In this document: piece by piece, positions 24,915 through 44,480 of the stretch
Layout: each line of letters begins with the position of its first letter
How positions within the stretch are numbered: position 1 is the first letter of the stretch
IMG/VR virus record: IMGVR_UViG_3300042863_001217
Source: a virus
Taxonomy: Duplodnaviria > Heunggongvirae > Uroviricota > Caudoviricetes
DNA length: 64,000 nt
Strand: one strand, 5' to 3'
Notes under the pieces: generated by a model
Databases searched by the model: none
What the model was told of the DNA's origin: nothing
What the model saw: only the letters and a program-made list of their open reading frames with translations
Program-made: the position numbers and the translations under genes

Positions 24915-24934
24915 TTTATTTTATATTATTTTTA

Positions 24935-26239
24935 TTATACTACGTTTAGTGTTAATGCACCAGATAGAGGTTGGTCAAATACTTCATATAAAGTGTATGC
25001 ATTTCCTAAATGTGTGAAATCTAATTTAGATACAAATGTAAATGGAATTCCATTCGCAGCATCTGCGAATTTAGCTGTCGTTACATAGTCAGTTGTACTA
25101 ACTGATTTTGGAATTGCAATGTAATATCTTTGTGAAGAAGCCACATTAGCCGCAAAATACAATGTACCGTTAGGTATTTCAGTATTATTTATAGCACTAA
25201 ATGTATCAAAATAAATTTGTTCTACATTATTAGCAGTTCCTTCATTCGCTAACATATCGACAAATACTAAATCAAAATTAGTTGTAGTTGTATTATCGTT
25301 TAAGTAATAATCAGAAGAAGGTGTAGTTAATGAATTAACTCCTGGATAACCTCCATTTCCGTTCCAGTGGAACCAGAATGTAGATGATCCTTCAGGAACT
25401 GGCGTTGCAGTCGGTTCTGGAATTGAAGTTGCAGTCGGTGCAGGAACTGGCGTTGCAGTCGGTTCTGGAATTGAAGTTGCAGTCGGTGCAGGAACTGGCG
25501 TTGCAGTCGGTGCAGGAATAGCTGTCGCTGTAGGTGCAGGAACTGGCGTTGCAGTCGGATCTGGAATTGCTGTCGCTGTAGGCGCAGGAACTTCAGTCGC
25601 TGTAGGATCTGGAACTGGCGTTGCAGTTGGGATCACTTCAGTCGCTGTAGGATCTGGAACTGGCGTTGCAGTCGGGATCACTTCAGTTGCTGTAGGTACA
25701 GGAACTTCAGTCGCTGTAGGATCTGGAACTGGCGTTGCAGTCGGGATCACTTCAGTTGCTGTAGGATCTGGAACTGGCGTTGCAGTTGGATCTGGTATAG
25801 CTGTTGCTGTAGGTGCAGGAACTGGCGTTGCAGTCGGGATCACTTCAGTTGCTGTAGGATCTGGAACTGGTGTTGCAGTCGGAATAATCGCAGTCGCAGT
25901 TGGCAAAATTGTTGCCGTAGGAACAGGAACTGGTGTTGCAGTAGGTGGTATAGGTGTAATATCAGTAACAAATAAAGTATTTGAAACGGTTTCACATAAA
26001 TTAGAGTCAATTATTTTAACTTTATATTGACCCGGTGCTAAACCACTATTACCCGTATTATCGGTTGCATTACCAAATGTAAACGTATTGGATACAATGT
26101 TATTGACAGGATTTTGAAATGTCGGATATGCATTGTTAGGTATCGGTTGATTTGTACCTGCGTTCAGTAAAGTATATTGGTAAGGTCCGACTCCTCCAAC
26201 TACTTGTACTGTAACTGTTCCATTATTAATGTTTGCCAT
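24935..26239 (-). CDS. Pro/Thr-repeat protein (PTATPVPDPTATEVI...) with globular N- and C-terminal domains
   Basis: About 170 aa of PT-rich tandem repeats. Confidence 0.55.
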   Translation of the reverse strand: MANINNGTVTVQVVGGVGPYQYTLLNAGTNQPIPNNAYPTFQNPVNNIVSNTFTFGNATDNTGNSGLAPGQYKVKIIDSNLCETVSNTLFVTDITPIPPTATPVPVPTATILPTATAIIPTATPVPDPTATEVIPTATPVPAPTATAIPDPTATPVPDPTATEVIPTATPVPDPTATEVPVPTATEVIPTATPVPDPTATEVIPTATPVPDPTATEVPAPTATAIPDPTATPVPAPTATAIPAPTATPVPAPTATSIPEPTATPVPAPTATSIPEPTATPVPEGSSTFWFHWNGNGGYPGVNSLTTPSSDYYLNDNTTTTNFDLVFVDMLANEGTANNVEQIYFDTFSAINNTEIPNGTLYFAANVASSQRYYIAIPKSVSTTDYVTTAKFADAANGIPFTFVSKLDFTHLGNAYTLYEVFDQPLSGALTLNVV

Positions 26240-26264
26240 TTGTTTATATTTTTATTTTAATTTT

Positions 26265-27944
26265 TTATCTAAAAGGTTCGCCTTCATATCGACATTCAAA
26301 GTTTGATGCACATTCTCCGCCCATCGGTAATGCATATACGCCTTCTGGATATGCCATTATAAAGTTATTTATGCTATCCCAATAATTAGGTTGCAATGTG
26401 CTACATATATTATATACAATACCTCGTGTTCCATTTATTTCAGCTGGTGCAGACATAAGTTCACTGAATAGTGTATTTTGTATTCCATTAAGATTATAAT
26501 TTAAACCGAAACCTTCTGTTTGTTCAGTTTCTGGTACGAATATGAAATGACAAAAACCTGTTTTACCTAAATCTTCAGGTGTTGGAGTAGGTCTTATAGC
26601 TTCTCCTCCACTACCACTATCTGGTGTAGATGTTGGTTCTATTGGTATCTCAGTTGCAATTGGTGCAGGAATTAGCGTTGCAGTTGGTGCAGGAACTGGT
26701 GTTGCAGTTGGAATAACTGGTGTTGCAGTCGGTGCAGGAATAGCTGTTGCAGTCGGTGCAGGAACTGGCGTTGCAGTCGGTGCAGGAACTGGTGTTGCAG
26801 TTGGTCTTCCCTCAATTGGATCTGGATCTGGTGTTCTAACACCTTCGCATCCAAATATATTATGTGTTAATATTCTCTCAAGACTTAAATCAGTACTCGG
26901 TGTTACACTTCTAAAAATGTAAACAGCACCTGTATTTAATTCACCTTCTATTGTAATTGTATCGTCAAGAGTTGGTGGTATAATAGTAAATCCAGCTTCA
27001 GTTAATGTTTCAGCTGTACATATATAATTAGGTTGTGCTTTTCCTTCAGGATTAAAGCAAACTATAAATTCATAATTTAATCGACCATCTATAATTGGTG
27101 TTGCGGTAGGTCTTATTGCTTCTGTTGCAGTAGGATCTGGAACTGGCGTTGCAGTTGGGATCACTTCAGTTGCAGTTGGATCTGGTAAAACTTCAACATC
27201 TGTTGGTGTTGGTGTAGGTCTAATAGATTCATCTAATGTTGCAGTCGGTGTAGGTCTAATAGATTCATCTAATGTTGCAGTAGGATCTGGTAAACCACTT
27301 CCTCCACTTCCTCCTCCACTACCACTATCTGGTGTAGATGTTGGTGTTATACCAGCACCTCCATCACCTGAACCTCCACCTGAACTAATTGCAGTTGCAG
27401 TTGGTGGAATTGGTGTTGCAGTTGGTGGAATTGGTGTTGCAGTCGGTGTTATACCTGAACCTCCACCACTTCCACTTCCACTGCTATATACAGTAGTTGG
27501 TATTGGTGTTGGATCTGGAATTTGCGTTGCATTTGTAGTTGATGCTAACGTAATAATAAATCCTCCACAATTATCGATTGCATCTGTTTTAGATGCAAAA
27601 TTAACATAAAAATCATTACAATCATATTGAGGCGTAATCCAAATATATTGACCTGAAGTATAACCAGCGGCTACATATCTGTCGTAATCAGTATCTAATG
27701 CACTAATTTTCCAAAATATTAATGATTTTTCTAATTCATTATCAGAAAGAGTTAAATTAGTATTCTGACCAAATATTCTCCAACCTGCCATAGTTTGTTG
27801 AGAATACAACAAATTATAGTCCATTTCAGAATGGGTTAGTGGTCTTCCTAAAGTATGCGGATGTAATGGAAACCATTTTCCATTAACCATGTTTCTATGA
27901 AGTCCGTGTATAAAACTATAATTTTCGATGTTACCGATATCCAT
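26265..27944 (-). CDS. Pro/Thr- and Gly/Ser-repeat protein, paralogous linker style
   Basis: PTATPIPPTATPIP, SGSGGGSG and PTATPVPAPTATAIP repeats. Confidence 0.55.
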   Translation of the reverse strand: MDIGNIENYSFIHGLHRNMVNGKWFPLHPHTLGRPLTHSEMDYNLLYSQQTMAGWRIFGQNTNLTLSDNELEKSLIFWKISALDTDYDRYVAAGYTSGQYIWITPQYDCNDFYVNFASKTDAIDNCGGFIITLASTTNATQIPDPTPIPTTVYSSGSGSGGGSGITPTATPIPPTATPIPPTATAISSGGGSGDGGAGITPTSTPDSGSGGGSGGSGLPDPTATLDESIRPTPTATLDESIRPTPTPTDVEVLPDPTATEVIPTATPVPDPTATEAIRPTATPIIDGRLNYEFIVCFNPEGKAQPNYICTAETLTEAGFTIIPPTLDDTITIEGELNTGAVYIFRSVTPSTDLSLERILTHNIFGCEGVRTPDPDPIEGRPTATPVPAPTATPVPAPTATAIPAPTATPVIPTATPVPAPTATLIPAPIATEIPIEPTSTPDSGSGGEAIRPTPTPEDLGKTGFCHFIFVPETEQTEGFGLNYNLNGIQNTLFSELMSAPAEINGTRGIVYNICSTLQPNYWDSINNFIMAYPEGVYALPMGGECASNFECRYEGEPFR

Positions 27945-28935: not shown

Positions 28936-29664
28936 TTATTGTTTTTTTGCTGCTAGTTGTTCTTGAATCCAACGTTTACCTAATGGATTTTGAACTGGTG
29001 TACCCAAGTTTCTGTTAATTTGCTTTTCGGCTTGATCTAATAGATCTTCACCATATGCTGAATTATCAACAATTAACATTTTATCAGATCCAAATAGTTT
29101 TTGAAAGTGACCTAAGTTATTTTGAACTTCTTTCCACATTTTTTCAACCATTTTATCTTCTAACTTTCTTTCTCTCATTTGATTTCGCTCTAATGCAACT
29201 TCTAATGATGTATTAACGAAAACCATATATGTATCATAACCTAAGTTTTGATAAATATCTCTAGTTTTACTAATCTTATCAAAATCTTTACCAGTTCCAT
29301 CAATTACTTGACCTAATCTAGAATTTAAATAGTTATTTTGAAGTCCTCTGGTCAAGTTTTTAGCTTTATCTCTAATAACCATAACTTCAGCCCATTTTTC
29401 AGGATCTTTTGCTAAATCTGCAAGATCTCCTGCATTATATCCAGCATCTTTTAAGCCTTTTTCGAATGCATTATCGTTATTAACTAATTTAAGTCCAGTT
29501 GCATAAGACACTGAACCTACTTTTCCTTTTGGAAAATCAAAAAGTTCTGTTGCAACATAAGATTTACCACTTCCTGGTCCACCTGCCATAAAGAATGCCT
29601 TAAGGATTCCTGGATCATATACGCCCTCGCTTACAAATTCTTCAAATAATTTGATATATTTCAT
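28936..29664 (-). CDS. Leader-family P-loop kinase-like protein (MKYIKLFEEFVSEG...)
   Basis: Conserved N-terminus followed by a GGPGSGKSYVA Walker A motif, as in nucleotide/nucleoside kinases. Confidence 0.55.
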   Translation of the reverse strand: MKYIKLFEEFVSEGVYDPGILKAFFMAGGPGSGKSYVATELFDFPKGKVGSVSYATGLKLVNNDNAFEKGLKDAGYNAGDLADLAKDPEKWAEVMVIRDKAKNLTRGLQNNYLNSRLGQVIDGTGKDFDKISKTRDIYQNLGYDTYMVFVNTSLEVALERNQMRERKLEDKMVEKMWKEVQNNLGHFQKLFGSDKMLIVDNSAYGEDLLDQAEKQINRNLGTPVQNPLGKRWIQEQLAAKKQ

Positions 29665-29696
29665 GATTATAAATTTATTTATATACTATATATCAA

Positions 29697-29733
29697 AATA
29701 AAAAAGGAGGTAACTTTAAAAGTACCTCCTTTG
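29697..29733 (-). terminator. Rho-independent terminator (minus strand)
   Basis: AGGAGGTAC-ttttaaagt-TACCTCCT followed by TTTTTTATTTT on the minus strand. Confidence 0.55.
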
Positions 29734-29755
29734 AAATATTATTTAATATATCTAA

Positions 29756-30133
29756 CTATTTTGCTATAAAAGCCGAAGTTGTTTTTTCACCATTTCTTAA
29801 AAGATTAGCAACTCTAGAATATCCATCTAATAAAACACCATCAACGACAACTATTTCTAATGAAAGATCTCTTGGACTTACATCGTCATCAGTGTAACGT
29901 TCTTCTCCTGAATCATAATATTCTTTAAAATCAGGATCGGTTTTTAATAAAGACTTCATATCAAAATCATCTACGTTTGCAAATGTTCTACCAACAATAT
30001 CTTTTTTAAATCCATTTGGAATATTTTCTTTTTCAGGTGTAATATCTTTAATATGTCTCCATACTTCTGATCCCTTTAAATCATTATATTCATTTAAATT
30101 GTTGTAGTCTTCATATGTTTTAACGTGTCTCAT
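29756..30133 (-). CDS. Degenerate leader-family protein (MRHVKTYEDY...)
   Basis: Weak match to the N-terminal pattern. Confidence 0.4.
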   Translation of the reverse strand: MRHVKTYEDYNNLNEYNDLKGSEVWRHIKDITPEKENIPNGFKKDIVGRTFANVDDFDMKSLLKTDPDFKEYYDSGEERYTDDDVSPRDLSLEIVVVDGVLLDGYSRVANLLRNGEKTTSAFIAK

Positions 30134-30153
30134 AATCTAATGTACTTTTGTTA

Positions 30154-32589
30154 TTATCTTGGCCAAAGCATTACTGTTCCTGGATCTGCAAATTGACCAT
30201 ACCATCCACACTTATCTAAAAATTTAGCAAGATCTTTGTGAATACCTTGTGGAAATTTAGATCCTCCATGGTAATAGTTAAACATTTCATCTTTCGCATT
30301 TGGCATTAATAAACCGTCGTTACCACCTAACCAAATACCACCTTCTTCACCGTCAAACTCTTCCGAATTTTTTACGAAACTAAGACCATATTTAGTAACC
30401 ATTACGTTTTTCATTTCTACTCTTGATAAAATCTTAGCTTCATTCAAGTACTTAGATTCCTGTAAAGAATGCTCGTTAACAATAGACTCATCAACCTTAA
30501 TTCCTCTTTTCTTAAGAAGTTTTTCAATTTCTTGATATGCTTTCTTATAATCTGCTTTTGGATATTCAAATCCTTTTAACCAATTAGCATATCCACTTAA
30601 TGCGTCATCATACATTTTCTTTAGATCTTCATCAGATGTTGAATTACTAAAGAAAAATGGTCCTACAAATGCCTCGTCAATAGAACCTGACATTAATTTA
30701 TATTTCCATGATTTTAGTTTCTTTTCTAATTCAGCTTTATCTTCTGCTTCAAAATCAAACTCATCATTGTAACCATAGTATCCTTTACCACGTTTTTCAA
30801 TGTAAGTTAATCCATCTTCACCGTCGTAGATTGCAATTTCTCTATCGTTATTATAAGTACCTTCTAAGATCTTTACACGTACGATGTCTTTTTTGGCAAT
30901 ACTATCTCCGTTAAAAACTAAATCATTATACATTTTACCAACAGAACCTTTAATTCCTTTTTTGGACTTTGTATCGATTGATAATACTTTATTAGTTCTG
31001 CTAAAATAATCTAACATATCGTAATCAAGATCTTTAGCATCTACTGTTTCGCCAGGACCTGGAAAGTTTTCATCTAAAGATTCAGTTTGAAAATGATTTC
31101 TATTAATCTTATTCAAATAATTTAATTCTTCGTCATTTAATTTAGTTGCAACTAATGATCTAAATTTACCACGTTGTTGAGAAGGCGTAAGCTTCATAAA
31201 TTCAACAATATCTTTGTCATCTTTAATTTTATCAATGATTGATTTTACAGCTTTATCAGATTTTCTTTTTTGCCACCAATTTTTTAAATCTTCAATTGGA
31301 GTAGTACCACCACCTGCACTTATTTTATTACCTAATAATGCTAATTGTCCCATAACCATGGCAGATTGCATTAGTATTAAAAATGTGGTTGCAGCATCTT
31401 CATTAATTGTAGATTCTAACATTTCTTCTTGCTCTGGAAAGTTTAAACTTTTACCAGCTGCAACTTGAATACCCGTAGCACCTCTTAATGAAACTCTTAA
31501 ATTGAATTTATCTCCATTTTCATTTTCAGCTTCAAAATCTCTAGTTGCTCCAGTTTTTGAACCAAATCCAGTTATTGTGTAAGTTCCTTTTTGAGTTTTA
31601 ATTTTGTTTCCAATTTTAAAACCATTTGCCATTTTAGGACTAATCATTCCTTCAACTAATTTCACCAATTTCGAATCGATCCATTCTTCACTAGAACCAT
31701 CCCATCTAATTAGAGATTTATTAGCTCTAGTTTTTACTAACTCACCAGTTCCTTGTAATTCACCTTTAGTATCATAAACATGTACTAACTCAACTGCTTC
31801 ATCGATTGATTCATCACCGAATCTATAACCACTAAACATGTTTTTAGCTTTTACAAGATCATCTTGTGTACCCGTTCCTTGATATAATATTTTACAACTA
31901 TCAGAATAGTTTTTTGCGTCACTTAGAACTTCTCTTACATCTGCTGCTCCAATTGCAATATAACCCGCACTGGTTGAATTTCCAGGATTTGTATATAAAA
32001 CAAATTTTTGTTTTTTAGCTTCATTAAGGGTTGATTCTAACAATATTAATCCAGCTGCCTTTGCTTCATCTCGTAATTCATCAAATTCTTCTATATCACT
32101 TCCTTTGATATAATCTGTTAAACCTCTAAAATTTTTAAAGTTTAACTTCTGTATTATATTAGTATTGCTATTATAAATAGCTCTTAAAAAATCTTTAACA
32201 CCAGCAGAACTTAAATGTAATTCATTTAAAGTTTCTTCAAGGCTAATTGATTCCAATACTTTAGAATTATCTTCAATAGCTTCTAATGTATCTGGCATTG
32301 TTCTAATTCCCACTCCGAATTTTTCATCCCATCTTTCAGATTTATATCCTGTACAATATTTGTCTTTAAGATCTTTATGATTTGCAAAAACACCACCTGG
32401 TAAATTAGTGATAATAGTACCCTTTGGTAAAACTACATTAATATAATTACCAATCTTAGCATCTTTGACATCCTTCTTTAATTCGTATTTACGATTATCT
32501 AAAGTGGTGATAGTTCTACCGCTTGTTCCAGAAATCATTTGCTTTGAAACTTCGCTTATGAATTCTTCAAATAATTTAACTTTCTTCAT
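30154..32589 (-). CDS. Leader-family large protein, 811 aa (MKKVKLFEEFISE...)
   Basis: Conserved N-terminus. Internal ...DESIVNEHS...YLNEAK... motifs. Confidence 0.6.
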   Translation of the reverse strand: MKKVKLFEEFISEVSKQMISGTSGRTITTLDNRKYELKKDVKDAKIGNYINVVLPKGTIITNLPGGVFANHKDLKDKYCTGYKSERWDEKFGVGIRTMPDTLEAIEDNSKVLESISLEETLNELHLSSAGVKDFLRAIYNSNTNIIQKLNFKNFRGLTDYIKGSDIEEFDELRDEAKAAGLILLESTLNEAKKQKFVLYTNPGNSTSAGYIAIGAADVREVLSDAKNYSDSCKILYQGTGTQDDLVKAKNMFSGYRFGDESIDEAVELVHVYDTKGELQGTGELVKTRANKSLIRWDGSSEEWIDSKLVKLVEGMISPKMANGFKIGNKIKTQKGTYTITGFGSKTGATRDFEAENENGDKFNLRVSLRGATGIQVAAGKSLNFPEQEEMLESTINEDAATTFLILMQSAMVMGQLALLGNKISAGGGTTPIEDLKNWWQKRKSDKAVKSIIDKIKDDKDIVEFMKLTPSQQRGKFRSLVATKLNDEELNYLNKINRNHFQTESLDENFPGPGETVDAKDLDYDMLDYFSRTNKVLSIDTKSKKGIKGSVGKMYNDLVFNGDSIAKKDIVRVKILEGTYNNDREIAIYDGEDGLTYIEKRGKGYYGYNDEFDFEAEDKAELEKKLKSWKYKLMSGSIDEAFVGPFFFSNSTSDEDLKKMYDDALSGYANWLKGFEYPKADYKKAYQEIEKLLKKRGIKVDESIVNEHSLQESKYLNEAKILSRVEMKNVMVTKYGLSFVKNSEEFDGEEGGIWLGGNDGLLMPNAKDEMFNYYHGGSKFPQGIHKDLAKFLDKCGWYGQFADPGTVMLWPR

Positions 32590-33379
32590 TTGTTTTAAAT
32601 GTTTTTATATGATTCTTTATTTCTTCTTCTTTTAATTCTTGATCCCATTTTATAAAGAATATGGTTTCATATACATTATCTCCCATCATGTCATACATTG
32701 ATTTGAGTTGTATTAATTCAAATTCTTCTTGATCTTTATCAGAATCTTTTAAATGGGATATTAATCCTCTGAAGTTATATATCTCGTTGTATTTAAGATC
32801 AGTCTCTTTGTAATTCATTATCTTGGAACCATAGTACTCCAAATGAAATCCCAGCTCTTCTAAAGGCTTAATTAAATTTAACTTATGATTCTTAATGATA
32901 CGCTTACTAGGCAGACCAGCGTTTCCATAAAAACAAATGGCTATCTGTTTAGACCATTTAGAAACCCAATCAGAACACACACCCACAACCTTATCGATGT
33001 TCGTGTCATTACATGAAATAGTATTAGAAGTGTATTGATTTGTGATATTAGACCAAGGAATACCCTTAGAAGTTATTGTAATATTATCACTTTTGTTATA
33101 GAAGAAATTAAGAGATGGAGCATTCTCTAATAAAAAAGAAAACGTTTGAGTATCCATGCAATTAATCCATAGATATTCTAAACGTTTTATATTTGTAAGC
33201 CAATCCCAATCTATTTGGGTTTTTGGTCCATTTGCACCTAAAAAGAATTTATTGTCTTGATACCAAAAATCTATTTTGACATTGTATCCTTGTTGAATTG
33301 CGAAATCTATATAATCTGGTGTATTTTCTAATAATACGTTAGGTCCTGTAATATTACCTTTGTTCGATATTAATAACAT
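32576..33379 (-). CDS. Hypothetical protein
   Basis: 267-aa ORF. Confidence 0.45.
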   Translation of the reverse strand: MLLISNKGNITGPNVLLENTPDYIDFAIQQGYNVKIDFWYQDNKFFLGANGPKTQIDWDWLTNIKRLEYLWINCMDTQTFSFLLENAPSLNFFYNKSDNITITSKGIPWSNITNQYTSNTISCNDTNIDKVVGVCSDWVSKWSKQIAICFYGNAGLPSKRIIKNHKLNLIKPLEELGFHLEYYGSKIMNYKETDLKYNEIYNFRGLISHLKDSDKDQEEFELIQLKSMYDMMGDNVYETIFFIKWDQELKEEEIKNHIKTFKTNEES

Positions 33380-33392
33380 AAACGTTTATTAG

Positions 33393-33632
33393 TTATACAT
33401 CTAAACTATCATGTGTTTCATTCTCTTTACGCTTTAATTGCCAGCGAAATAATATGGATAGCCCAAAGAACGACGCCGCAATAAAATACATAACGAAATT
33501 GGCGCGCCAAAGACTTCCAGTCGTCTGGATCAACCAGTACTGAATTACGTCGAACCCAAGCGGATTGAAAAATAGGGCTACCATCATGCTCCATGTTGAT
33601 AGACGGCTTTTTAGTTTTTTCGTTATACTCAC
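33393..33632 (-). CDS. Small two-TM membrane protein
   Basis: 79 aa with two hydrophobic helices. Preferred over the overlapping 33427..33648 ORF. Confidence 0.35.
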   Translation of the reverse strand: MSITKKLKSRLSTWSMMVALFFNPLGFDVIQYWLIQTTGSLWRANFVMYFIAASFFGLSILFRWQLKRKENETHDSLDV

Positions 33633-33649
33633 GACTGTCTGCTTCCATA

Positions 33650-34615
33650 TTAGTTAATATACATATTCAATTCAAATTTATCGTTTCCTCTATTATAAAT
33701 TTGAACATGTAAAGATTTCTTTTGTTCCTTATCGTTTTTAAAAAGTGTTAAGGTATCTTTTTTGGTTTTACCATCATTTGGTTTAAAGAATGCATCTATA
33801 TAAGCATCACCGTATTCTTTAGGATCTAATGTATATCCTTGAGAATTAGCATATATTTCAACTGCATTAATAGCTGAGGAATAGAGATTGTGATAAACTG
33901 GATAGTCATCTTTCTTCTCATTAACTACGCTTTCTTTTAAACCTAATTCTTTGTGTAATACTGACATGAATGGTCCAAAATTATGTGTACCGTATTCATC
34001 GATCAATACCTTAGCAACTGCTAATGCAAAATCAGTGTATGACAAAGAGTCATCAATTTTAATAATTGCTGAATCAATTCCTTTTGCTAATGCATCAGAA
34101 TTTTTAGATTCACTAATATAAACGAATTTATCGCCTTTGAATGCTTTATTTAAATCTTTAAGTAAATCTTCTGGTCCAGTGTGTTCTGCTGTTGAAAACC
34201 ATTTACCTCTGTATTGAAAATCTCCATCATAATCAACTTTAACCATACCATCATCTGAGAATATAAATGCATTTTCATCATCTTCCCAATCAACTGTGAT
34301 TTTCTTTTCTTTAATACCATCAACACCATCCATTGCATCATGAACTGCGTTTAGATTGTCCACCGCTCCAGTGATTTGAGAAAACATCCAAGATTCTAAT
34401 TTTTGACCGCCTTTCATGCGATCTCCGATCATTTCAGCATAATCTTCAATTCTTTCTAATTGACCTAAAGTCATATTATTTAATTCAGTAAGAGTATCAC
34501 CTTCTTCAGTAATTGATTTTTCTGACATATAAAATGCAGCATACTGTTCTCTTGACATATTCTGCTGAGAAGCAGCAATATTTAGATAATCGTCGAATAA
34601 TTTAACTATTTTCAT
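33650..34615 (-). CDS. Degenerate leader-family protein (MKIVKLFDDYLN...)
   Basis: Internal KESVVNEKK motif. Confidence 0.5.
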   Translation of the reverse strand: MKIVKLFDDYLNIAASQQNMSREQYAAFYMSEKSITEEGDTLTELNNMTLGQLERIEDYAEMIGDRMKGGQKLESWMFSQITGAVDNLNAVHDAMDGVDGIKEKKITVDWEDDENAFIFSDDGMVKVDYDGDFQYRGKWFSTAEHTGPEDLLKDLNKAFKGDKFVYISESKNSDALAKGIDSAIIKIDDSLSYTDFALAVAKVLIDEYGTHNFGPFMSVLHKELGLKESVVNEKKDDYPVYHNLYSSAINAVEIYANSQGYTLDPKEYGDAYIDAFFKPNDGKTKKDTLTLFKNDKEQKKSLHVQIYNRGNDKFELNMYIN

Positions 34616-34629
34616 GATTTGTATTTTAT

Positions 34630-34968
34630 TTAATATTCAAATGGTGGTGTACCATAATCAGCACGTTTAACAGCATACCAAACTCGACCTACTCTGAAAT
34701 ACCAGAATGTTGGTGTGTCAATGATATAGTGTTGTCCTTTAATAGTTACGTCTTTGTAACCACCTCTTGTAAAGTTCTTTGTTACAGGAACTCCGTCGTC
34801 CCATGTTTTATCAGTAGATTGTGCTTTGAAAGTTTTACCACTAAAGGTTGCTAAATAAATTTCTGCAGGTTTACCTTCTGATTTTTCGTCTTTAGTAAAA
34901 GCTTCTAAACCGATTGGCATTTCATTACCTTCGTTTACGAATTCTTCAAATAATTTAGTGTGTTTCAT
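34630..34968 (-). CDS. Leader-family protein (MKHTKLFEEFVNEG...)
   Basis: Conserved N-terminus. 112 aa. Confidence 0.55.
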   Translation of the reverse strand: MKHTKLFEEFVNEGNEMPIGLEAFTKDEKSEGKPAEIYLATFSGKTFKAQSTDKTWDDGVPVTKNFTRGGYKDVTIKGQHYIIDTPTFWYFRVGRVWYAVKRADYGTPPFEY

Positions 34969-35169
34969 TTGTAATCTTGTTTTTCACGAGGTTGTCTCTT
35001 TCTTAAATTAATTTCGTCTCTTAATTCTTTGATCCTATCTTTGATAATCATAATTCTATAATTATGCCATTTTCTAACTATAAAACATTTAGATTTATTT
35101 GCTTCTAAGTTTTCTAGTTCGGATTCAAAAAATTTAACCAATTTAAAGAGTGCCACCGTGTGTATTGTT

Positions 35170-35508
35170 TTATTGTTTTTCGTTAGCTCTGCACCAAACT
35201 ACTGCATCTTTTGGAGTTTTTAACTCTTCATCATATCCACTTAAGTCATAAATACCTAAGATAGTTTGACCATCGTCATTTAAATAGAATGAAAATTCTT
35301 CCATGTCACCTTCGTGTCTTGGAGCTTCAGATTCTAATCCATTTGCAAAGTGTACAATATGTGGAAATTCTTCTTGATCGTCATGTCCCCAAATAAGTTT
35401 TTCTACATTTTTGGCTTTAGCAAGTTCTTTAAATAATTTTACTAAAATCTCTGGTTTAGGTGATTTAGCTTCATTTAAGAATTCTTCGAATAATTTAGTG
35501 TGTTTCAT
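35170..35508 (-). CDS. Leader-family protein (MKHTKLFEEFLNEA...)
   Basis: Conserved N-terminus. Confidence 0.55.
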   Translation of the reverse strand: MKHTKLFEEFLNEAKSPKPEILVKLFKELAKAKNVEKLIWGHDDQEEFPHIVHFANGLESEAPRHEGDMEEFSFYLNDDGQTILGIYDLSGYDEELKTPKDAVVWCRANEKQ

Positions 35509-35514
35509 AATATC

Positions 35515-35844
35515 TTATTTATATTCTTTTTCGTATTTAGCTTTTAATTCTTCCCAAGCTGCTTTGTATTTAGCAGGAATTTTAGAAGGTTCATAAATTC
35601 TTGAATTTGATCTTTTGCTTGATCCTACTTTATAGTTTGAACCAGTGTATTGTTCCATGAATTCATCTCCAACTTTTTTATCACCATCAGCTTTAACATA
35701 AATACCATATGTGATAAATGTATCACCGTCTAAGTGACCTTCTAAAATATCACAACAAGGATTATGATCCTTGTTAGAATTAAATTTAAAGTCAATGAAT
35801 TTACCTTCGTTGATAAATTGTTCAAATAGTTTAATGTGTTTCAT
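35515..35844 (-). CDS. Leader-family protein (MKHIKLFEQFINEG...)
   Basis: Conserved N-terminus. Confidence 0.55.
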   Translation of the reverse strand: MKHIKLFEQFINEGKFIDFKFNSNKDHNPCCDILEGHLDGDTFITYGIYVKADGDKKVGDEFMEQYTGSNYKVGSSKRSNSRIYEPSKIPAKYKAAWEELKAKYEKEYK

Positions 35845-35849
35845 AATTA

Positions 35850-36119
35850 TTAAATTAATTTTGCTTTTGCTAATTTTGCTTTTAAAAGTTTACCAACTCT
35901 AGATTCAATTCCAGGAGATCTAAAAGAACCACCTATTTCGTTAGCTTCTTTTTTAATTAAAGTGATTAAGTCATCGATAGCAACTTCAACGTTAGCCATT
36001 AAATCTTCTTCTCTTGCTTCTTCGTCATCTGAAATAGTACCATCAGATTTCTTTTCAGTAATCGTCTTAGGTAATTCAATTTTATTTGCGAAAGCTTCGA
36101 AAGGTTTTGCGTATTTCAT
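35850..36119 (-). CDS. Degenerate leader-family protein (MKYAKPFEAFANK...)
   Basis: Weak match. Confidence 0.4.
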   Translation of the reverse strand: MKYAKPFEAFANKIELPKTITEKKSDGTISDDEEAREEDLMANVEVAIDDLITLIKKEANEIGGSFRSPGIESRVGKLLKAKLAKAKLI

Positions 36120-36152: not shown

Positions 36153-36740
36153 TTAATTAAAAAGCTCTTTTAGTTTTTCGTTTTTTATCATATTTGTTAC
36201 AGCTAATTCATAATTACTAGCCTCTGCATAATTTGCACCCAAATAACTTAAATATTGTTCTTCTGTATTAAGGTCTCTAAGATAAGCTGATTGAAATATT
36301 GCATAATCTAAGATTGATTCTTTCCAATTATCGTAATAAGCATGACCTAAATTAGTTCCACGTGCAGTAGTAGTTCTTTGTTTAGCTTCTTTCATACCAA
36401 ACAAATTATTATTAGATCTAAAGATATTACTTTGAAAATGGCCGCTTTCTATAAGAGCTTGAGCTAATACAATATGTGGGTATTTTACATTAAGTCGCTT
36501 AAGTTCTTCTACCACAGCTTCTTTTGAAAACTCATTCTTGGATATTTCATTAACTATTAAGACTTTTTGTTCATATGACATGTTAGTCATGGATTTAGCG
36601 GAAGCTTTCTGTGTGGCCACATTGTATGTGGTATAATAAGTAATGCCTAAGAAGAGCAAAGATGCTCCTATGGCTTTAAGCATTTTTCGGGGATTAATTC
36701 GTTTAAAAGTTAACGAGTCTTTACAATAAGTGTATAACAT
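36153..36740 (-). CDS. Glucosaminidase-domain peptidoglycan hydrolase (FlgJ-like) with N-terminal membrane anchor
   Basis: LAQALIESGHFQSNIFRSNNNLFGMK matches the mannosyl-glycoprotein endo-beta-N-acetylglucosaminidase family. Transmembrane segment at residues ~22-40. Confidence 0.65.
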   Translation of the reverse strand: MLYTYCKDSLTFKRINPRKMLKAIGASLLFLGITYYTTYNVATQKASAKSMTNMSYEQKVLIVNEISKNEFSKEAVVEELKRLNVKYPHIVLAQALIESGHFQSNIFRSNNNLFGMKEAKQRTTTARGTNLGHAYYDNWKESILDYAIFQSAYLRDLNTEEQYLSYLGANYAEASNYELAVTNMIKNEKLKELFN

Positions 36741-36939: not shown

Positions 36940-39900
36940 TTAGAATACGAACTGGAATGTCTTTAATAAGTCTTTTCCTTTTGTTGAATTTGCTTCAACA
37001 TTGAACTCATTGTATAGTTTTGTATACATTAAGTCCCATTCGTCTTTATCAGCTAAAGTGTTTAATTCATTTGCATTGTCTTTGATAAATTTCTTAACAT
37101 CAGATCTTAAATCTTCGTTAACCTTTACCTCAAACATTTCTACTAAAGCATCTAACGTTAATTTAGATTCTTCTACGAATTCCTTAGCATTTTTTTTATC
37201 GTCTGGTCCAGCGTCTTCTACTTTATAAGTTTCGCCTTCAAATTCAAATTCTTTTGCACCATCTGCAATAGCTTTTGCTCTTGCTGCACCGAATGCATTT
37301 CCTTCTTCAATAACTGGAAAGGTTTTACCATTAAATTCAAATTCTTCAGCATCTTCTTCGATTGCTTTAGCTCTTGCAGCCAAGAATGCATTTCCTTCTT
37401 CTACGAATTCTTTTGCATTTTCTTTATCGTCTGCTCCAACATCTTCAACTTTATAAGTTTCACCTTCAAATTCAAATTCTTTAGCACCATCTGCAATTGC
37501 TTTAGCTCTTGCGGCACCGAATGCATTTCCTTCAGATACTACTAATTCAAGATCTTTATCTTTACCAGCAACAGCTGCGTCTAATTCTGCTTCTAATTCT
37601 CTTTTCTTAGCTGTCAATGCTTTCATTTCATCCAACAATTCAGATTTTCTATCGCCTTCAGCTACTTTCCACTCACCTGCTTTTTGTTGCATTTTAGTAG
37701 TAGTTTCACTCCATTCTTTTTGGATTTTATTGATTGATCTACCTTCATTAACAACAGATTCATCAATAGCATTTGGATATTTAGTATCTTTAGCTAAATC
37801 TAAAAGAGCTTTAATATCTTCTGCCTTATTTCTATTGTATTTGTCAGCATTCTTTTTATCTTTGAATATCGCAGATACTTGTTTACCATTATCATCAATC
37901 ATAATGATAATACCTTTTTTACCATAAACTCTCTCGTCTGTAACAGATATACCTTCAATAACTACTGATTCTTTAGTCAATTCATTAGGTGCGTGCTTGT
38001 GCATTTCTCCGTTTGGTAATTCTACATTATAGTATTTTTCATCCTCTGCGCCATCTTCTTTATCTAAAGAAACAATTACACCAGTTCCACCATGTGACAT
38101 TTTTACTTTGTCGCCAACTTTAAAATGTGATTCAGTAACTTTAGATTCATATTTATCAGCTTGATTATTTTTAATATCATCTGCTGACATTTGATCAACT
38201 AATCTTTTAAATAAAGTTATTGTAGCTGGACCATAAAAACCATCTTCTTCATATCCTCTAGTAGGTCTGCCCATTTCATAGTCTCCAATGTGTGAAGCAA
38301 GTTCCATTGCATTATCTAATAGATTTTGACCATTACCACCACCTTTGAAAGTTTTTTCAGATGCGGTTTCAACATATTTTATTAGATCAGCCGCAGATTC
38401 ATTAACTTTAGATTCTGACATATTTGCATCTAATACTTTTTGGAATGATTTAGCATCAGTAACTTCTTCGCCAAATAATTCAATTGTTTCGTCATTTAGA
38501 TTAATATAAATTTCAGAACCTTGATGTTTCATGTCTAAAATTATAGTCATATAATCTTTACCAATTGCAGTACCACCGCTAATATACTTACCAGCTTTTT
38601 CAGCCCATGTAGCAGCTTTCTTAACCAATGAAGTTGCATAACTTCCTTTTCTTTTAGCAAAATCTAAAACATTAGAAGGTACTCTTGCTGCTTCAGTAAC
38701 TTTAGATTCATCATACTCTTCATAATCATCATCGTACTCTTCTTCTTGGTACCATGATTGATTTGGATCATGTTCTGCTTCTTGTGTAAAATCGTGCTTT
38801 TTGAAGTTGAAACGTTTTGGATCTTCAACTAAAGCTGGGAAAAGAACTTTTCCACTAACTTTCTTTTTATCAAATGCAATATCAATACCATCTTGTCTAT
38901 TAGGATTTTCAATTCCATTCATTTGAGCTAATAATTCGTAGTAATCTTTACCACCGAATTCACCGTAACCGTCATATTTCTTTTCTTCCCATTTATTACC
39001 TTTGTCATCAAACATTGTAATAGTAATGGTATTTTGTTTTTCAGAACCAATTTGATTTCCAGTATCTTGAGCCATCCATGAGAATTGACCTTCGTTAACT
39101 ACTGACTCGTCCATGTTTTCTTTAGCAGTATCGTAAATTGTTTGTAACCATGCTTCAAATTGACCTGGTTCACCAGCACTAGATAAGTCATGATGTTCTT
39201 TTTTAAACTCTTTTACAAATGATTTAAAATCTTTTGCTTCTTGAGCCATAATATCAATATCTGACATTGCACTCTCGTGTAATTTTGGATTTTTTATGTT
39301 TTTTACAATAGTATCAAGCTTATCATCAAAATAACCATATACCGGTGATCCTGGAACTGCATGATTAACTACTTCTCCGTTATGATAAATATTGTAAGAT
39401 CCACCTGCATATTCTTCGCCATCTACATCTAAATCAAATGAATCTTCTTCTAGTGATTTTTTATTAACAGTAGCTTTAACACCATCTGCTTTAGAAAGAG
39501 CGCTAGCATATAATTCTGCAACCTTTTTTGTATCGTCTAATGTAAGACCTGCTGGTTTTTTAGAAGATTCTAAAAGTTCAGGATAGTATTCTTCAATAGT
39601 TTCTTGATCCATTTCATAGAAATCACTTTTAAGATATGCAAGAATGTCTTTTTTCTTACCAGTTACTTCGAAAGTTCCTTCTTGACGAATGTCCTGACTA
39701 CCGCGACCCAGACTCATTGGTTCAACTTTGATCTTATATTTCTTGAAAGCTGCTTTAGCTGCTTTGTCTTCTTCTTTGTCTAAATCATCCCATGCCATAT
39801 CAACCTCAACAGTGATGACTTCACTTTCACCTACAAAAGATTCAAATTTAAAATCTTGATTCTTTTGTGATTCAGCACTTACTACAGCTAATAAACCAAC

Positions 39901-40518
39901 TTTAGATTTAGGTACCTTTAATTCGATGATTGCTTTTTGTTTAGCATCCCAAAGATCTTTACCTTCTACTTCGATTTTCTTGTTATTAAAGAATGCAAAG
40001 AATAAAGTTTCGTTAACCTTATTTGCTTCTAAAGACTCTTTAATACTTAAGTCTTTTAAACTTCTAACAGGTACACCTTTTGTTTCACCATCTTCTGGAT
40101 TTGAAAATGCTAATAAACCTGCAGCAATTAATCTCTTATAAAGCTCGGTTTTAACTAATTCAAAATCAATAGAGTCTGATGAATTTTCCCAAGTATCTGC
40201 TACATATTCTGGATCAATCCAACCAATACCTCTCTTGATACTGGTTTCCATATCCTTGTAATCCGTTTCGAATTGCTTGATCTTTCCTTCATTGATCTCT
40301 GCATTTGCAAGAGATAATGATTTCATGGCTGATAATTTATCAGTAAAAAATACTAAAGCCTCATTTAAAGACAAAGGTTCTTTGATATTTTTTGTAAGCG
40401 TTTCAGCTTTTATAGAGCTTTTAGTCTCTGACTTTAATAAAGCTATTTTAACCGCTTCAGCAGTATAGCTTGCTCCAGTCGTAACTTCTTTATTATTGAA
40501 ATTAATAAATGATGACAT
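36940..40518 (-). CDS. Giant 1192-aa acidic protein with recurrent E-S-x-V-(N/T)-E motifs and C-terminal 3x tandem ~40-aa repeats. Candidate processed internal virion/ejection protein
   Basis: Five internal sites: DESVVNEG (twice), DESKVTEAA, YESKVTESH, SESKVNESA. C-terminal repeats EGNAFGAARAKAIADGAKEFEFEGETYKVED. Confidence 0.55.
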   Translation of the reverse strand: MSSFINFNNKEVTTGASYTAEAVKIALLKSETKSSIKAETLTKNIKEPLSLNEALVFFTDKLSAMKSLSLANAEINEGKIKQFETDYKDMETSIKRGIGWIDPEYVADTWENSSDSIDFELVKTELYKRLIAAGLLAFSNPEDGETKGVPVRSLKDLSIKESLEANKVNETLFFAFFNNKKIEVEGKDLWDAKQKAIIELKVPKSKVGLLAVVSAESQKNQDFKFESFVGESEVITVEVDMAWDDLDKEEDKAAKAAFKKYKIKVEPMSLGRGSQDIRQEGTFEVTGKKKDILAYLKSDFYEMDQETIEEYYPELLESSKKPAGLTLDDTKKVAELYASALSKADGVKATVNKKSLEEDSFDLDVDGEEYAGGSYNIYHNGEVVNHAVPGSPVYGYFDDKLDTIVKNIKNPKLHESAMSDIDIMAQEAKDFKSFVKEFKKEHHDLSSAGEPGQFEAWLQTIYDTAKENMDESVVNEGQFSWMAQDTGNQIGSEKQNTITITMFDDKGNKWEEKKYDGYGEFGGKDYYELLAQMNGIENPNRQDGIDIAFDKKKVSGKVLFPALVEDPKRFNFKKHDFTQEAEHDPNQSWYQEEEYDDDYEEYDESKVTEAARVPSNVLDFAKRKGSYATSLVKKAATWAEKAGKYISGGTAIGKDYMTIILDMKHQGSEIYINLNDETIELFGEEVTDAKSFQKVLDANMSESKVNESAADLIKYVETASEKTFKGGGNGQNLLDNAMELASHIGDYEMGRPTRGYEEDGFYGPATITLFKRLVDQMSADDIKNNQADKYESKVTESHFKVGDKVKMSHGGTGVIVSLDKEDGAEDEKYYNVELPNGEMHKHAPNELTKESVVIEGISVTDERVYGKKGIIIMIDDNGKQVSAIFKDKKNADKYNRNKAEDIKALLDLAKDTKYPNAIDESVVNEGRSINKIQKEWSETTTKMQQKAGEWKVAEGDRKSELLDEMKALTAKKRELEAELDAAVAGKDKDLELVVSEGNAFGAARAKAIADGAKEFEFEGETYKVEDVGADDKENAKEFVEEGNAFLAARAKAIEEDAEEFEFNGKTFPVIEEGNAFGAARAKAIADGAKEFEFEGETYKVEDAGPDDKKNAKEFVEESKLTLDALVEMFEVKVNEDLRSDVKKFIKDNANELNTLADKDEWDLMYTKLYNEFNVEANSTKGKDLLKTFQFVF
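37170..37560 (-). repeat. Three tandem ~120-bp coding repeats in the giant protein
   Basis: Repeated peptide EGNAF(G/L)AARAKAI...EFEF(E/N)G(E/K)T(Y/F). Confidence 0.6.
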
Positions 40519-41045
40519 ATGTTTGTTTGTATATTTTACTTTATATATTCTTATTTTTTACCAGCACCGGAACCTTTACCGCTTCCGCTTCCAGAACCTG
40601 AACCACTTCCACTTCCAGAACCTGAACCTTTACCACTTGAACGGCCAGAACCTGTACCATAAGCATATCCTGTTCCACCTACATTTGATCCACTTCCAGA
40701 GCCTGATCCTGATCCAGAGCCTGAACCACTGGTAGCATTTTTACCTGTTTTTGGTTTTTTAGGTGTAAGTTTTTTAGCTTTTGCTTCTTTAGCAATTGGT
40801 GCTACTTCTTTTGCTGGTTTAGCAGCTTTAATTTTAGTAGGTTTTTTTACTGTAGGTTCTACAATAGGATCAAGTACTGAACCTCTTTTAGAATCTTCTT
40901 TCTCTTTTTTTGCAATTGCTTTAAAAATAGTTATAATAACTACTAAAGAGACTAATGCTACTGCGATGATTGTTGTACTCATAATTTTGTTTTTTATTAT
41001 TTTAGATTATATATTTATATTATTTATCTTCATTTTGTTTCATAA

Positions 41046-43848: not shown

Positions 43849-43850
43849 AT

Positions 43851-44450: not shown

Positions 44451-44480
44451 CTTAGCTTATACTTAAAAATCTAATAATGT

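Follow-up and report, generated by a model that had tools for sequence, protein, structure and literature searches.

An N-terminal leader resembling the T4 capsid-targeting sequence probably marks capsid cargo in an uncultured jumbo phage

The first phage products that a host encounters are the proteins packaged in the head and injected along with the DNA; those of T4 include factors that counter restriction or take over the host. Such cargo is normally found only via virion proteomics of cultured phages. A 64,000-nucleotide stretch of DNA from an uncultured jumbo phage (IMG/VR record IMGVR_UViG_3300042863_001217; the whole stretch analysed is referred to here as the window) raises the question of what is served by a 13-residue leader, M-K-x-x-K-L-[FY]-E-[EQ]-F-[IVL]-x-E, that opens at least 15 otherwise unrelated proteins. 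Eight of the tagged genes lie at 28936-36119 (cluster B), seven at 9.4-13.1 kb (cluster A) and one at 45.5 kb. The leader very likely marks proteins carried in this phage's capsid, and we give a probability of about 0.75 to the reading that it is this lineage's version of the T4 capsid-targeting sequence (CTS), which would provide for core binding, cleavage, head retention and ejection of the cargo.

Cluster B had been described in a first-pass annotation as nine leader-tagged genes; the count is instead eight tagged genes with three untagged open reading frames, and every N-terminus quoted in that description was found on the minus strand, at the coordinates given below. The tag is carried, as proposed there, by a P-loop kinase of 242 aa (28936-29664; start MKYIKLFEEFVSEG, Walker A motif GGPGSGKS, Pfam match) and by a multi-module protein of 811 aa (30154-32589; canonical tag MKKVKLFEEFISE/, where the slash here and below marks the predicted cut). 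Canonical tags are also seen on a 112-aa protein (34630-34968; start MKHTKLFEEFVNEG, tag MKHTKLFEEFVNE/G) and a 109-aa protein (35515-35844; start MKHIKLFEQFINEG, tag MKHIKLFEQFINE/G), and between them lies a further tagged 112-aa protein (35170-35508; start MKHTKLFEEFLNEA, tag MKHTKLFEEFLNE/A, matrix score 31.0) that has no Pfam or PHROG family match. The three degenerate tags reported earlier are present as well: MRHVKTYEDY on a 125-aa protein (29756-30133; MRHVKTYEDYNNLNE/, matrix score 14.3, with L-N-E shifted by 2 residues), MKIVKLFDDY on a 321-aa mosaic protein (33650-34615; MKIVKLFDDYLNIAAS...) and MKYAKPFEAF, the weakest, on an 89-aa protein (35850-36119; MKYAKPFEAFANKIE, below the matrix threshold). 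Their interpretation as ongoing divergence agrees with orthologs in other phages, which bear canonical tags; the ortholog of the 125-aa protein on contig L101 begins MKSFTEFLNE/Q, a short T4-like form. The untagged frames are a 267-aa gene of phrog_34507, a family of unknown function (32576-33379, minus strand; no tag by ORF start or matrix, and nothing found linking it to the tagged set), and the frames at 33427-33648 and 34965-35156.

The recurrence of the tag in the window is far beyond chance. A six-frame scan found the motif 14 times in its strict and 16 times in its loose form, always on the minus strand and with the methionine at ORF position 1; the tag at 9438 is additionally internal to a longer, 229-aa ORF (9172-9861) of cluster A. 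A matrix built from independent sequences matched 15 gene starts in the window, nothing else in it and nothing in the 10-kb right flank. Cluster A itself (9172-13101, minus strand; ATGs at 9438, 10565, 11344, 11903, 12224, 12817 and 13101) encodes seven tagged proteins that have no Pfam or PHROG family match and have tagged orthologs on other contigs.

A shared start of this kind could be unrelated to the capsid, as a translation or mRNA element, another localisation signal or what is left of a duplicated gene family. In favour of this, the DNA that encodes the tag is rich in A and lies at the extreme 5' end of each gene, and the genes are grouped, like those of many paralog families. However, once the leader is removed the tagged bodies show no mutual similarity (best BLASTP E = 0.08), which rules out a paralog family, and synonymous codons inside the tag are free to vary (TTT/TTC 7:7, CTA/TTA 5:8), which rules out a nucleotide-level element. 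Since synonymous codons vary while the bodies are unrelated, selection on the tag acts at the peptide level. The motif moreover recurs as an internal linker, where no translation start is needed, the leader is charged, unlike Sec/Tat-type signals, and it is systematically linked to a T4-type head module. We therefore regard an origin unrelated to the capsid as scarcely credible. The helical amphipathicity of the tag was marginal (p about 0.05-0.08). T4-type late-promoter octamers (TATAAATA) were not enriched, the gene strand having 9 where about 13 would be expected, a count that is uninformative on late expression, and Rfam and tRNA scans returned one tRNA-Ala and nothing else.

The peptide-level signal closely resembles the CTS of the T4 internal proteins, reportedly treated by Mullaney & Black in 1996. 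In the CTS of IPI, IPII and IPIII, reviewed in PMC9026906 and PMC3012670, targeting depends on residues 4 and 7, and processing on residues 8 and 10 (PMC9026906). T4 ipII and ipIII begin MKTYQEFIAE/A and ipI begins MKTFKEF; T4 K2..E10 and the stretch K5-L-F-E-E-F-I-N-E13 of the window tag can be aligned without a gap, which places F/Y, F, I/V/L and E at the equivalents of residues 4, 7, 8 and 10. A matrix derived only from environmental proteins that had been picked via their protease was run over the six frames of T4, and its top four matches were gene 61.1, ipIII, ipII and ipI, each starting at residue 2 of the annotated gene; taken singly, the matrix scores of the T4 internal proteins were only borderline against shuffled maxima. 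The two systems share a short N-terminal leader on otherwise unrelated proteins (KTYQEFIAE/A in T4, KLFEEFINE/G here, with environmental variants such as KTYNEFLNE/A), an end at an [LI]-x-E/ prohead-protease site, variable and clustered cargo genes, and a T4-type portal, Peptidase_S77 and Gp23, encoded here in related genomes. They differ in that the tag here usually has three extra N-terminal residues (MKH-), that at least 15 tagged genes occur in 64 kb as against three in T4, that the cargo includes enzymes (kinase, Nudix), that the motif is reused as an internal linker of multi-module proteins, and that the clade is uncultured and known from sequence, with a capsid protein closest to those of Bacteroidota-type huge phages. 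The bodies of the tagged proteins, which are orphans or enzymes, gave no PHROG or Pfam match to T4 internal-protein families. In the literature searched we found no occurrence of the tag strings KLFEEF, KLFEQF and KTFEEF, and no description of capsid-targeting tags in environmental or jumbo T4-type phages; the single match for KTFEQF, a yeast N-terminal acetyltransferase, was set aside as unrelated.

The end of the tag has the form of a protease site, T4-type prohead proteases being known to cut after Glu in X-x-E (PMC5694885). Among 136 non-redundant tags from other contigs, gathered by a search that left positions 11-13 unconstrained, [ILVM]-x-E stood at these positions in 106, as against 0-5 in other registers, and conservation collapsed after position 13. 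In the kinase the tag MKYIKLFEEFVSE/ occupies the first 39 nt (29626-29664) and the mature body would begin GVYDPGILK; in all of the best 120 homologs, x-E/ directly precedes the core G[VL]YDP whatever the leader sequence, and the homologs in Melnitz and HTVC008M have different leaders that end L-x-E/G. The tags of the 321-aa and 89-aa proteins have no clean [IVL]-x-E at positions 11-13, and these two products may escape processing.

These data also bear on a reading in which the leader is a propeptide removed by the protease, keeping its product inactive, or a degradation or timing signal, with no role in directing proteins to the capsid. The conserved [IVL]-x-E end and the identical internal linker motif do show a processing function, and a toxic cargo such as the Zeta-toxin-like kinase could need masking. 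Positions 5-10 (K-L-F-E-E-F), however, are more strongly conserved than the cleavage triplet and match the targeting and not the processing residues of T4, whereas a bare cleavage site would need no exact N-terminal position; S77 proteases, furthermore, work inside the prohead, so that their substrates must reach it. A propeptide without capsid targeting is on these grounds very unlikely.

The association with a T4-type head is seen in related contigs. In loci that were selected by their protease and also bear a portal gene, a gene lies between portal and protease in 77 of 77 cases; its product is small and acidic, and its N-terminus is the tag or a variant of it, for example MILKTYNEFLNE/A. 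Pfam confirms Portal_T4, Peptidase_S77 and Gp23 in these relatives, where the motif also marks the head proteins: ...RVNE/[SA] closes the protease domain, at the protease-scaffold junction, in 73 of 81, and the capsid protein begins M-x-x-[LI]-[IL]-N-E/[AS]E in 69 of 77. The earlier proposal of a cleavable leader that places proteins in the virion thus draws support from the portal-protease slot and from the motif at the junction and the capsid N-terminus, as it does from the near-identity to the T4 CTS and the conserved protease-type end of the tag. The slot has a positional counterpart in T4, where gp67 and gp68, core proteins cut by gp21, are likewise encoded between portal (gene 20) and protease (gene 21). 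The T4 proteins differ in having no CTS at their start, and hhalign found no homology between the slot protein and gp67 or gp68 (probability 0.1 % and 0.5 %).

Several relatives tie this head module to the window. The protease is encoded on L235, a contig of 256 kb that shares synteny and about 70 % nucleotide identity with the window; both L235 and L153 have protease, portal and capsid Pfam matches above the cut-offs. Two contigs bear both the protease and a tagged kinase 68-70 % identical to that of the window, and the 109-aa protein of cluster B has homologs of 79-81 % identity on jumbo contigs of 234-236 kb (3300042318_001127 and 3300042511_000879) that encode a Peptidase_S77 protease too. 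PHROG and Pfam searches found no protease, portal or capsid gene in the window or its 10-kb right flank, where only genes of nucleotide and NAD metabolism occur, nor were head genes located on the window's own 240-261 kb contig (120 representatives, 2 x 10 clusters); the link between the protease and the window's tag thus rests on relatives. A candidate for the protease of the window phage, P0297, was rejected, as it sits on another contig, of 259 kb. Megablast found no close relatives among deposited phages, and tblastn against 50,697 deposited phage genomes gave nothing for the most conserved tagged module. These contigs have their head-gene order, but not the tag, in common with the huge phage LR756500 and with Tenacibaculum phage PTm1, which is cultured.

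The tag motif is also found inside proteins. In the 811-aa protein, linker sites with contexts of the form ES-x-[LIV]-[ND]-E fall at residues 188-190, 262-264, 395-397, 505-507, 637-639, 704-706 and 715-717; [LIV]NE occurs five times against 0.74 expected, and none of 300 shuffles had as many. Its modules occur singly as tagged proteins on other contigs. The last of them (residues 714-811, after ...SKYLNE/A; 30154-30450, minus strand) is 86 % identical to a standalone tagged protein of 107 aa (L074) and 38-40 % identical to the N-terminal domain of the tagged gene in the portal-protease slot of L076, L113, L127 and L085. The module at residues 262-317, directly after ...ESIDE/A (31639-31806, minus strand), is 66 % identical to residues 11-66 of the L085 slot protein, where it directly follows the tag ...FVNE/A. 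Three blocks of the 321-aa protein, which has three modules and an internal KESVVNE/ site, match three separate proteins (L124, of 81 aa and with a canonical tag; L074; L022), and compared with L124 the protein has 22 additional residues inserted behind the tag. The module at 34630-34968 recurs internally, after ...ILESLNE/G in a 379-aa protein of L115 and after ...ESKVNE/A in L012, and the 89-aa body is elsewhere the C-terminal module of proteins of 622-644 aa, following ...FESVTNE/S. The same modules thus stand behind the N-terminal tag in one phage and behind an internal linker in another, and 57 % of 68 internal homology blocks start within 3 residues of an [LIV]-x-E site, as against 16 % of random positions. 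The 811-aa protein is a chain of shuffled modules with tag-like ES-x-[VIL]-N-E/ linkers between them, and probably a polyprotein.

Next to cluster B, as previously described, lie a giant protein of 1192 aa (36940-40518, minus strand) and a membrane-anchored glucosaminidase (36153-36740, minus strand). The giant protein, which is untagged, contains three GNAFGAARAKAI... repeats and many internal linkers of the form ES-x-[VI]-[NT]-E/; [LIV]NE occurs seven times against 1.27 expected, with as many in none of 300 shuffles, and its modules are common to tagged proteins (L044, L053) and to many proteins of 500-900 aa that adjoin tagged genes elsewhere. It is probably a polyprotein from the same module pool, on weaker evidence than that for the tagged genes. 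The whole arrangement had been taken as an 'ejected proteins' module; of this the leader as a cleavable virion signal is backed by the sequence evidence above, whereas the glucosaminidase offers none, since it is untagged and resembles an ordinary membrane-tethered endolysin (N-terminal hydrophobic segment, PF01832 58.1 bits, PHROG endolysin families). It is probably an endolysin that neighbours the tagged set without belonging to it.

If the leader works as the T4 CTS does, it would, late in infection, bind the tagged proteins to the scaffolding core of the assembling prohead, with the aromatic pair F7/F10 corresponding to T4 residues 4 and 7, which are required for targeting in T4. The shell would close over the core-bound proteins, and the prohead serine protease (Peptidase_S77, fused to the scaffold) would cut after the Glu of [IVL]-x-E and so release the protein, now mature, within the head. 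Modules of 60-190 aa would result from further cuts by this protease at the internal ES-x-[VIL]-N-E/ linkers of the 811-aa protein and, probably, of the 321-aa and 1192-aa proteins; the protease would free itself from the scaffold at ...RVNE/S and trim the capsid protein at MANLINE/AE. The mature cargo, comprising the P-loop kinase, a Nudix hydrolase and many small orphan domains, would stay with the DNA and be expected to enter the host.

The two enzymes of this presumed cargo were characterised further. The kinase falls in phrog_12810 and matches Zeta_toxin at 38.9 bits (cut-off 22.3) and AAA_33 at 36.4 bits (cut-off 27); a fold search with a structure model of pLDDT 64 returned only generic P-loop kinases (polynucleotide kinase, PezT/zeta, adenylate kinase; TM 0.35-0.6), and a sequence search of solved structures gave no informative match, so that neither sequence nor fold points to a substrate, be it the UDP-GlcNAc of zeta toxins or the polynucleotide 5'-OH of polynucleotide kinase. 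Its best IMG/VR match is 74 % identical. The Nudix hydrolase is a lone tagged gene of 162 aa (45033-45521, minus strand; tag MKHLKKYDQFINE/K, Pfam NUDIX 48.6 bits), the L053 ortholog of which begins MKKLKTLDQFTNE/G.

Targeting and cleavage could also hold while most of the products are core or scaffold filler and not effectors delivered to the host, their fragments being expelled or staying behind in the head as small peptides, in the manner of T4 gp22, gp67 and gp68. An ancestral tagged gene in the prohead-core slot between portal and protease, with a small and acidic product, would suit such a role, as would the many tagged modules that are small acidic orphans without an enzymatic domain and the many internal sites in the large proteins, as in the T4 scaffold. 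At least two tagged products, however, are enzymes with conserved folds, the P-loop kinase and the Nudix hydrolase, and T4 uses the same signal for injected anti-restriction proteins (PMC3012670). The tagged kinase is very widespread, matching at least 8000 clusters, the best 120 of which are all at least 72 % identical; disposable filler is hard to reconcile with enzyme bodies that are so strongly conserved. We consider a predominantly filler role unlikely, although part of the tagged set may serve in the core or scaffold and be degraded instead of ejected. The fates of filler and injected effector are not mutually exclusive.

Other systems for head-packaged proteins offer partial parallels. 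The inner-body and ejection proteins of phiKZ, 201phi2-1 and SPN3US are processed by a T4-related prohead protease (PMC5694885, PMC10052503), and there too jumbo phages package many proteins from clustered genes, the protease cuts after Glu in X-x-E and trims its own C-terminus, and paralogs can have identical N-terminal propeptides. Their motifs, in contrast, are S/A/G-x-E or A-x-E (PMC5694885), where the leader here has [IVL] at P3, and their propeptides are mostly longer than 100 aa with no common short leader, as against 13 aa here. The tagged proteins had no PHROG match to phiKZ/SPN3US inner-body families, which sets them apart from phiKZ-type ejection proteins, and no chimallin or virion-RNA-polymerase genes were seen. 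Polyvalent proteins (cited in PMC7824862) are large, have several domains and are injected along with conjugative or phage DNA; the 811-aa and 1192-aa proteins resemble them in size, in their shuffled domains and in presumed entry with the DNA, but their modules are small orphans without recognised enzymatic domains, have the same protease-type linker between them throughout and are also found as separate tagged genes.

Should the leader work like the T4 CTS, it would offer a simple rule by which cargo can be recognised from sequence in thousands of genomes of uncultured aquatic phages, define the specificity of the prohead protease as [VIL]-N-E/, and mean that the T4 packaging signal is conserved far outside the T-even phages and that head cargo evolves by the shuffling of small modules between single genes and polyproteins. 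The conserved kinase and Nudix hydrolase would then be candidate injected effectors, and phages of this clade could be engineered with the tag as a transferable loading signal. A broader proposal, to which we give a little less than an even chance, is that of a 'cargo code' across a very large and wholly uncultured T4-type clade, in which one short peptide both loads the head and marks the protease cuts, and the small domains of a combinatorial library move freely between single tagged genes and polyproteins with linkers. Were it true, metagenomes would suffice, without proteomics, for reading off every protein that is injected along with the DNA, among them a near-universal kinase and a Nudix hydrolase, which may act on host defence or on signalling nucleotides, and the T4 CTS would be an ancient feature of the T4 superfamily instead of a T-even peculiarity. 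The genome fragments of this clade range from 5 kb to more than 400 kb.

The minus strand of 28936-36119 (cluster B) carries eleven ORFs, in a window of 30 % GC, and eight of these start with the 13-residue leader M-K-x-x-K-L-[FY]-E-[EQ]-F-[IVL]-x-E recognised in the first-pass annotation, which had counted nine tagged genes; the remaining three are untagged. Five of the tags are canonical (ATGs at 29664, 32589, 34968, 35508 and 35844) and three diverged (ATGs at 30133, 34615 and 36119). Scanned in six frames, the whole window gave 14 matches to the core K-[LPT]-[FY]-E-x-[FY] and 16 to a looser pattern, all real copies of the core lying on the minus strand with a Met exactly four residues upstream. 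The same scan placed seven more tag copies in a second group at 9.4-13.1 kb (cluster A), and a single tagged gene outside both clusters at 45033-45521. A matrix built from unrelated contigs recovered 15 of the tagged gene starts and matched nothing else, either in the window or across the 10 kb past its right end. Within the 229-aa ORF at 9172-9861 (minus strand) a complete tag, MKHIKLFEQFSKTLNE/K, lies internally, at residue 142 (a slash marks the presumed cut after Glu). The N-terminal part of this ORF resembles by eye (MAKVYYVAENAPDYSQVNFYKT... vs MAIIFYVSEKNSEYTQINFFKT...) the 265-aa product that locus L166 encodes in the slot between its portal and prohead protease genes; the ORF represents two genes or, alternatively, one two-module polyprotein containing an internal start.

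Without their first 14 residues the 16 proteins displayed no mutual similarity (best BLASTP E = 0.08), and the leader as a family trait was rejected because the bodies are dissimilar. Synonymous codons inside the leader were mixed (TTT/TTC 7:7, CTA/TTA 5:8, AAT/AAC 7:4, GAA/GAG 8:4), so it is the peptide that is under selection. A search of IMG/VR using a degenerate DNA pattern covering tag positions 1-10 returned at least 120 stretches, on contigs ranging from 5 to 480 kb and, among the matches listed, with as many as seven tagged genes in one locus. Positions 11-13, left free by the search pattern, read [ILVM]-x-E in 106 of the 136 non-redundant tags in those matches, as against 0-5 in other registers, and the information content, 3.2 bits at position 13, was down to 1.0 at position 14. 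This drop, together with the [ILVM]-x-E end, indicates that the leader is a discrete 13-residue unit ending in a protease-type site. No description of the motif was found in the literature searched.

The window consensus (MKH)IKLFEEFINE/G aligns without gaps to K2-E10 of the T4 capsid-targeting sequence, ipII and ipIII of T4 both starting MKTYQEFIAE/A and ipI MKTFKEF. The first ten residues of T4 IPIII are enough to bring about head incorporation, with targeting depending most on residues 4 and 7 and processing on 8 and 10 (PMC9026906); their equivalents in the window tag are F/Y, F, I/V/L and E. Prohead proteases of the T4 type cleave after the Glu of X-x-E and process their own C-terminus as well (PMC5694885). 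A matrix made from environmental proteins, chosen via the protease gene and not via the tag, was used to scan T4 in all six frames, minus ~1 kb at the record end. Its top four matches were gene 61.1 (MKTFKEFIKE/D), ipIII, ipII and ipI, each beginning at the second residue of an annotated gene and three of them defined targeting sequences. Single scores were borderline against shuffled maxima; the joint result, four matches at true gene starts with three known targeting sequences among them, cannot be chance. Gene 61.1 (NC_000866, 18966-19130, minus strand) encodes the 54-aa hypothetical gp61.1, which outscores ipII and ipIII and is possibly a capsid-targeted T4 protein that has gone unrecognised.

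Homologs of the gp21 protease were present in 14 tag-selected loci among the matches listed, 13 of which also encoded a gp20 portal and most the capsid protein gp23, in the order portal, tagged gene, protease, capsid protein. The clade was sampled a second time through the protease itself, giving 81 non-redundant proteases; a portal lay in the locus for 77, and in 77/77 of these the slot gene was present, its product starting with the tag or a close variant (MKIIKTFEEF..., MKTYIKTFEQFIFE/, MILKTYNEFLNE/A, MKLKTYTEFLNE/S). In these related loci Portal_T4, Peptidase_S77 and Gp23 exceeded the curated Pfam cut-offs. The protease carries a long, repetitive, scaffold-like C-terminal part fused to it, and an almost invariant ...RVNE/[SA]-Y-G-F stands exactly where the protease domain ends in 73 of 81, while the capsid protein starts M-x-x-[LI]-[IL]-N-E/[AS]E in 69 of 77. 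At the matching place T4 gp23 reads ...FLTEAEIGG and is cut after the Glu of ...FLTE. The tag-end motif thus also marks the two proteins known to be substrates of T4-type proteases.

The C-terminal region of the protease (400-500 aa; alignment A1; L057, L235, L153 and others) contains a variable number of AEK(L/T)DQSIQYSEH(V/I) repeats, a poly-acidic stretch and a conserved C-terminal domain, and is presumably a scaffold. The capsid protein apparently has only a 7-residue propeptide (MANLINE/), where T4 has a long delta domain instead. Slot proteins (alignment A3, e.g. L150:4624-4965) are small and acidic, with a poly-Glu tail followed by a conserved C-terminal DPLAG(I/L). In Tenacibaculum phage PTm1, a cultured relative, two small ORFs at 24580-25014 start MKKLYDHISENLVTE/ and MKKRTLAEAIVE/G; these leaders are like the window tag in length and likewise end in [IV]-x-E, and PTm1 may employ a variant signal of its own.

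The best explanation of these sequence patterns is that the leader would serve as the clade's capsid-targeting sequence and prohead-protease site. The two clusters would then encode head cargo, including a kinase and a Nudix hydrolase, as well as probable polyproteins, and we infer cleavage, head localisation and ejection of the tagged proteins. The main rival bears on fate and not on mechanism: some of the tagged products may serve as core filler, to be broken down instead of injected. Both the mechanism, from T4, and the variability of internal-protein genes among T-even phages are already known. What appears to be new is that the signal is conserved in a distant uncultured T4-type clade with jumbo phages among its members, that the tagged repertoire is so large, that the cargo contains enzymes, and that the signal is reused as a linker inside shuffled polyproteins.

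The first gene of cluster B encodes a P-loop kinase, with Zeta_toxin and AAA_33 both past the Pfam threshold. The T4-like marine phages Melnitz and HTVC008M encode homologs that share its G(V/L)YDP...GGPGSGK core behind other leaders (MKTFAELQE/G and MIPFILKE/G, respectively), and among the best 120 homologs, each at least 72 % identical, some leader variant ending x-E abuts the core in 120/120. The product of 45033-45521 is a Nudix hydrolase whose ortholog on another contig is likewise tagged. In T4 the order at 65416-67490 is ipII, ipIII, e (lysozyme) and nudE (Nudix), and at 35-45 kb of the window a glucosaminidase comes after tagged genes, with the tagged Nudix hydrolase 8 kb beyond it; the likeness may be coincidence. 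The glucosaminidase carries no tag and resembles an ordinary endolysin.

Only two of the window proteins were enriched in [LIV]-N-E, the 811-aa protein at 30154-32589, which is tagged (5 vs 0.74 expected), and the 1192-aa protein at 36940-40518, which is not (7 vs 1.27), the observed count being reached in 0/300 shuffles for either. Both are split by a recurring linker, ES-x-[VIL]-[NDT]-E/, and the resulting modules span 60-190 aa. A free-standing 107-aa tagged protein shares 86 % identity with the last module of the 811-aa protein, and in four loci the N-terminal domain of the slot protein matches that module at 38-40 % identity; residues 262-317 of the 811-aa protein follow ...ESIDE/A in the window and an N-terminal tag, ...FVNE/A, in L085. 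In a 379-aa protein of L115, an internal near-complete tag (...KKFKSFEEFIGE/A) precedes the first module of the 811-aa protein, after which ...ILESLNE/G leads into the module of the 112-aa tagged protein at 34630-34968. The 321-aa protein at 33650-34615 is a three-module mosaic. Sequence comparison thus shows the modules to be mobile. Internal homology blocks start within three residues of [LIV]-x-E in 57 % of 68 cases (random positions, 16 %), and this, with modules following either tag or linker, shows that N-terminal tags and internal linkers are interchangeable, as would be expected of a shared processing site. Since the 1192-aa protein has linkers and no N-terminal tag, its inclusion among the cargo is less secure.

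The suggestion that the degenerate tags reflect ongoing divergence is supported by their relatives. The ortholog of the 125-aa protein starts MKSFTEFLNE/Q, ten residues with exactly the layout of the T4 sequence; that of the 321-aa protein has a canonical tag, the window copy having lost the Glu and gained a 22-residue insertion past the tag; and the body of the 89-aa protein is found elsewhere as the C-terminal module of 622-644 aa proteins, after ...VTNE/S.

The phage is a jumbo phage, represented by contigs of 239,540 and 260,917 bp, and no head genes were found in the window or its right flank. The 256-kb IMGVR_UViG_3300012346_000380, syntenic with several window segments at ~70 % nucleotide identity, encodes a portal, a tagged slot gene (MNTYNMKKLIKTFEQFIFE/AEA), Peptidase_S77 and Gp23. 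The same head module occurs on three contigs of 234-236 kb, two of which (3300042318_001127 and 3300042511_000879) encode homologs of the 109-aa tagged window protein at 79-81 % identity, and a tagged kinase (68-70 % identical to that of the window) accompanies the protease on two contigs of 130 and 167 kb. The clade's capsid protein is nearest to those of the huge uncultured phage LR756500, Lak megaphages and Tenacibaculum jumbo phages, which, with a weak SprB domain beside the tail-fibre genes, suggests Bacteroidota as probable hosts. No cultured representative was found in the collections searched.

The tail fibre itself is a 1294-aa collagen-like protein (21030-27944, minus strand) matching many PHROG tail-fibre families, and its repeats account for a spurious 790-aa opposite-strand ORF at 21424-23796. 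Two proteins downstream are rich in Pro/Thr repeats, one with the weak SprB domain, and vary in length across strains (552 or 559 aa; 364, 434 or 450 aa). The 143-aa protein of 40551-40982 (minus strand) combines a hydrophobic N-terminal segment with long Gly-Ser repeats. Sugar-modifying genes at 13123-18192 and 41358-50570 (minus strand), including two nucleotide-sugar epimerases and at least two glycosyltransferases, suggest phage-encoded glycan or DNA-sugar chemistry; one glycosyltransferase is 42-47 % identical to those of the Xanthomonas/Stenotrophomonas jumbo phages XacN1, Xoo-sp13, CM1 and RAS14, and ORF 41358-42104 is read as putatively KDO-8-phosphate-synthase-like. The sole tRNA is a tRNA-Ala(TGC) at 58891-58965 (minus strand). 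At 2450-7330 (plus strand; 38 % GC vs 30 % elsewhere) lie at least six copies of a conserved 64-104 nt element, ...TTGTCAtttannnnGTGTATATTTACTCTATAATTAAAAC...ATATG, with sigma70-like -35 and -10 boxes and ending in the ATG of plus-strand genes; they look like repeated strong, perhaps early, promoters. The border of this block and cluster A, at about window position 9151, is where the JGI contig Ga0335037_0000003 ends.
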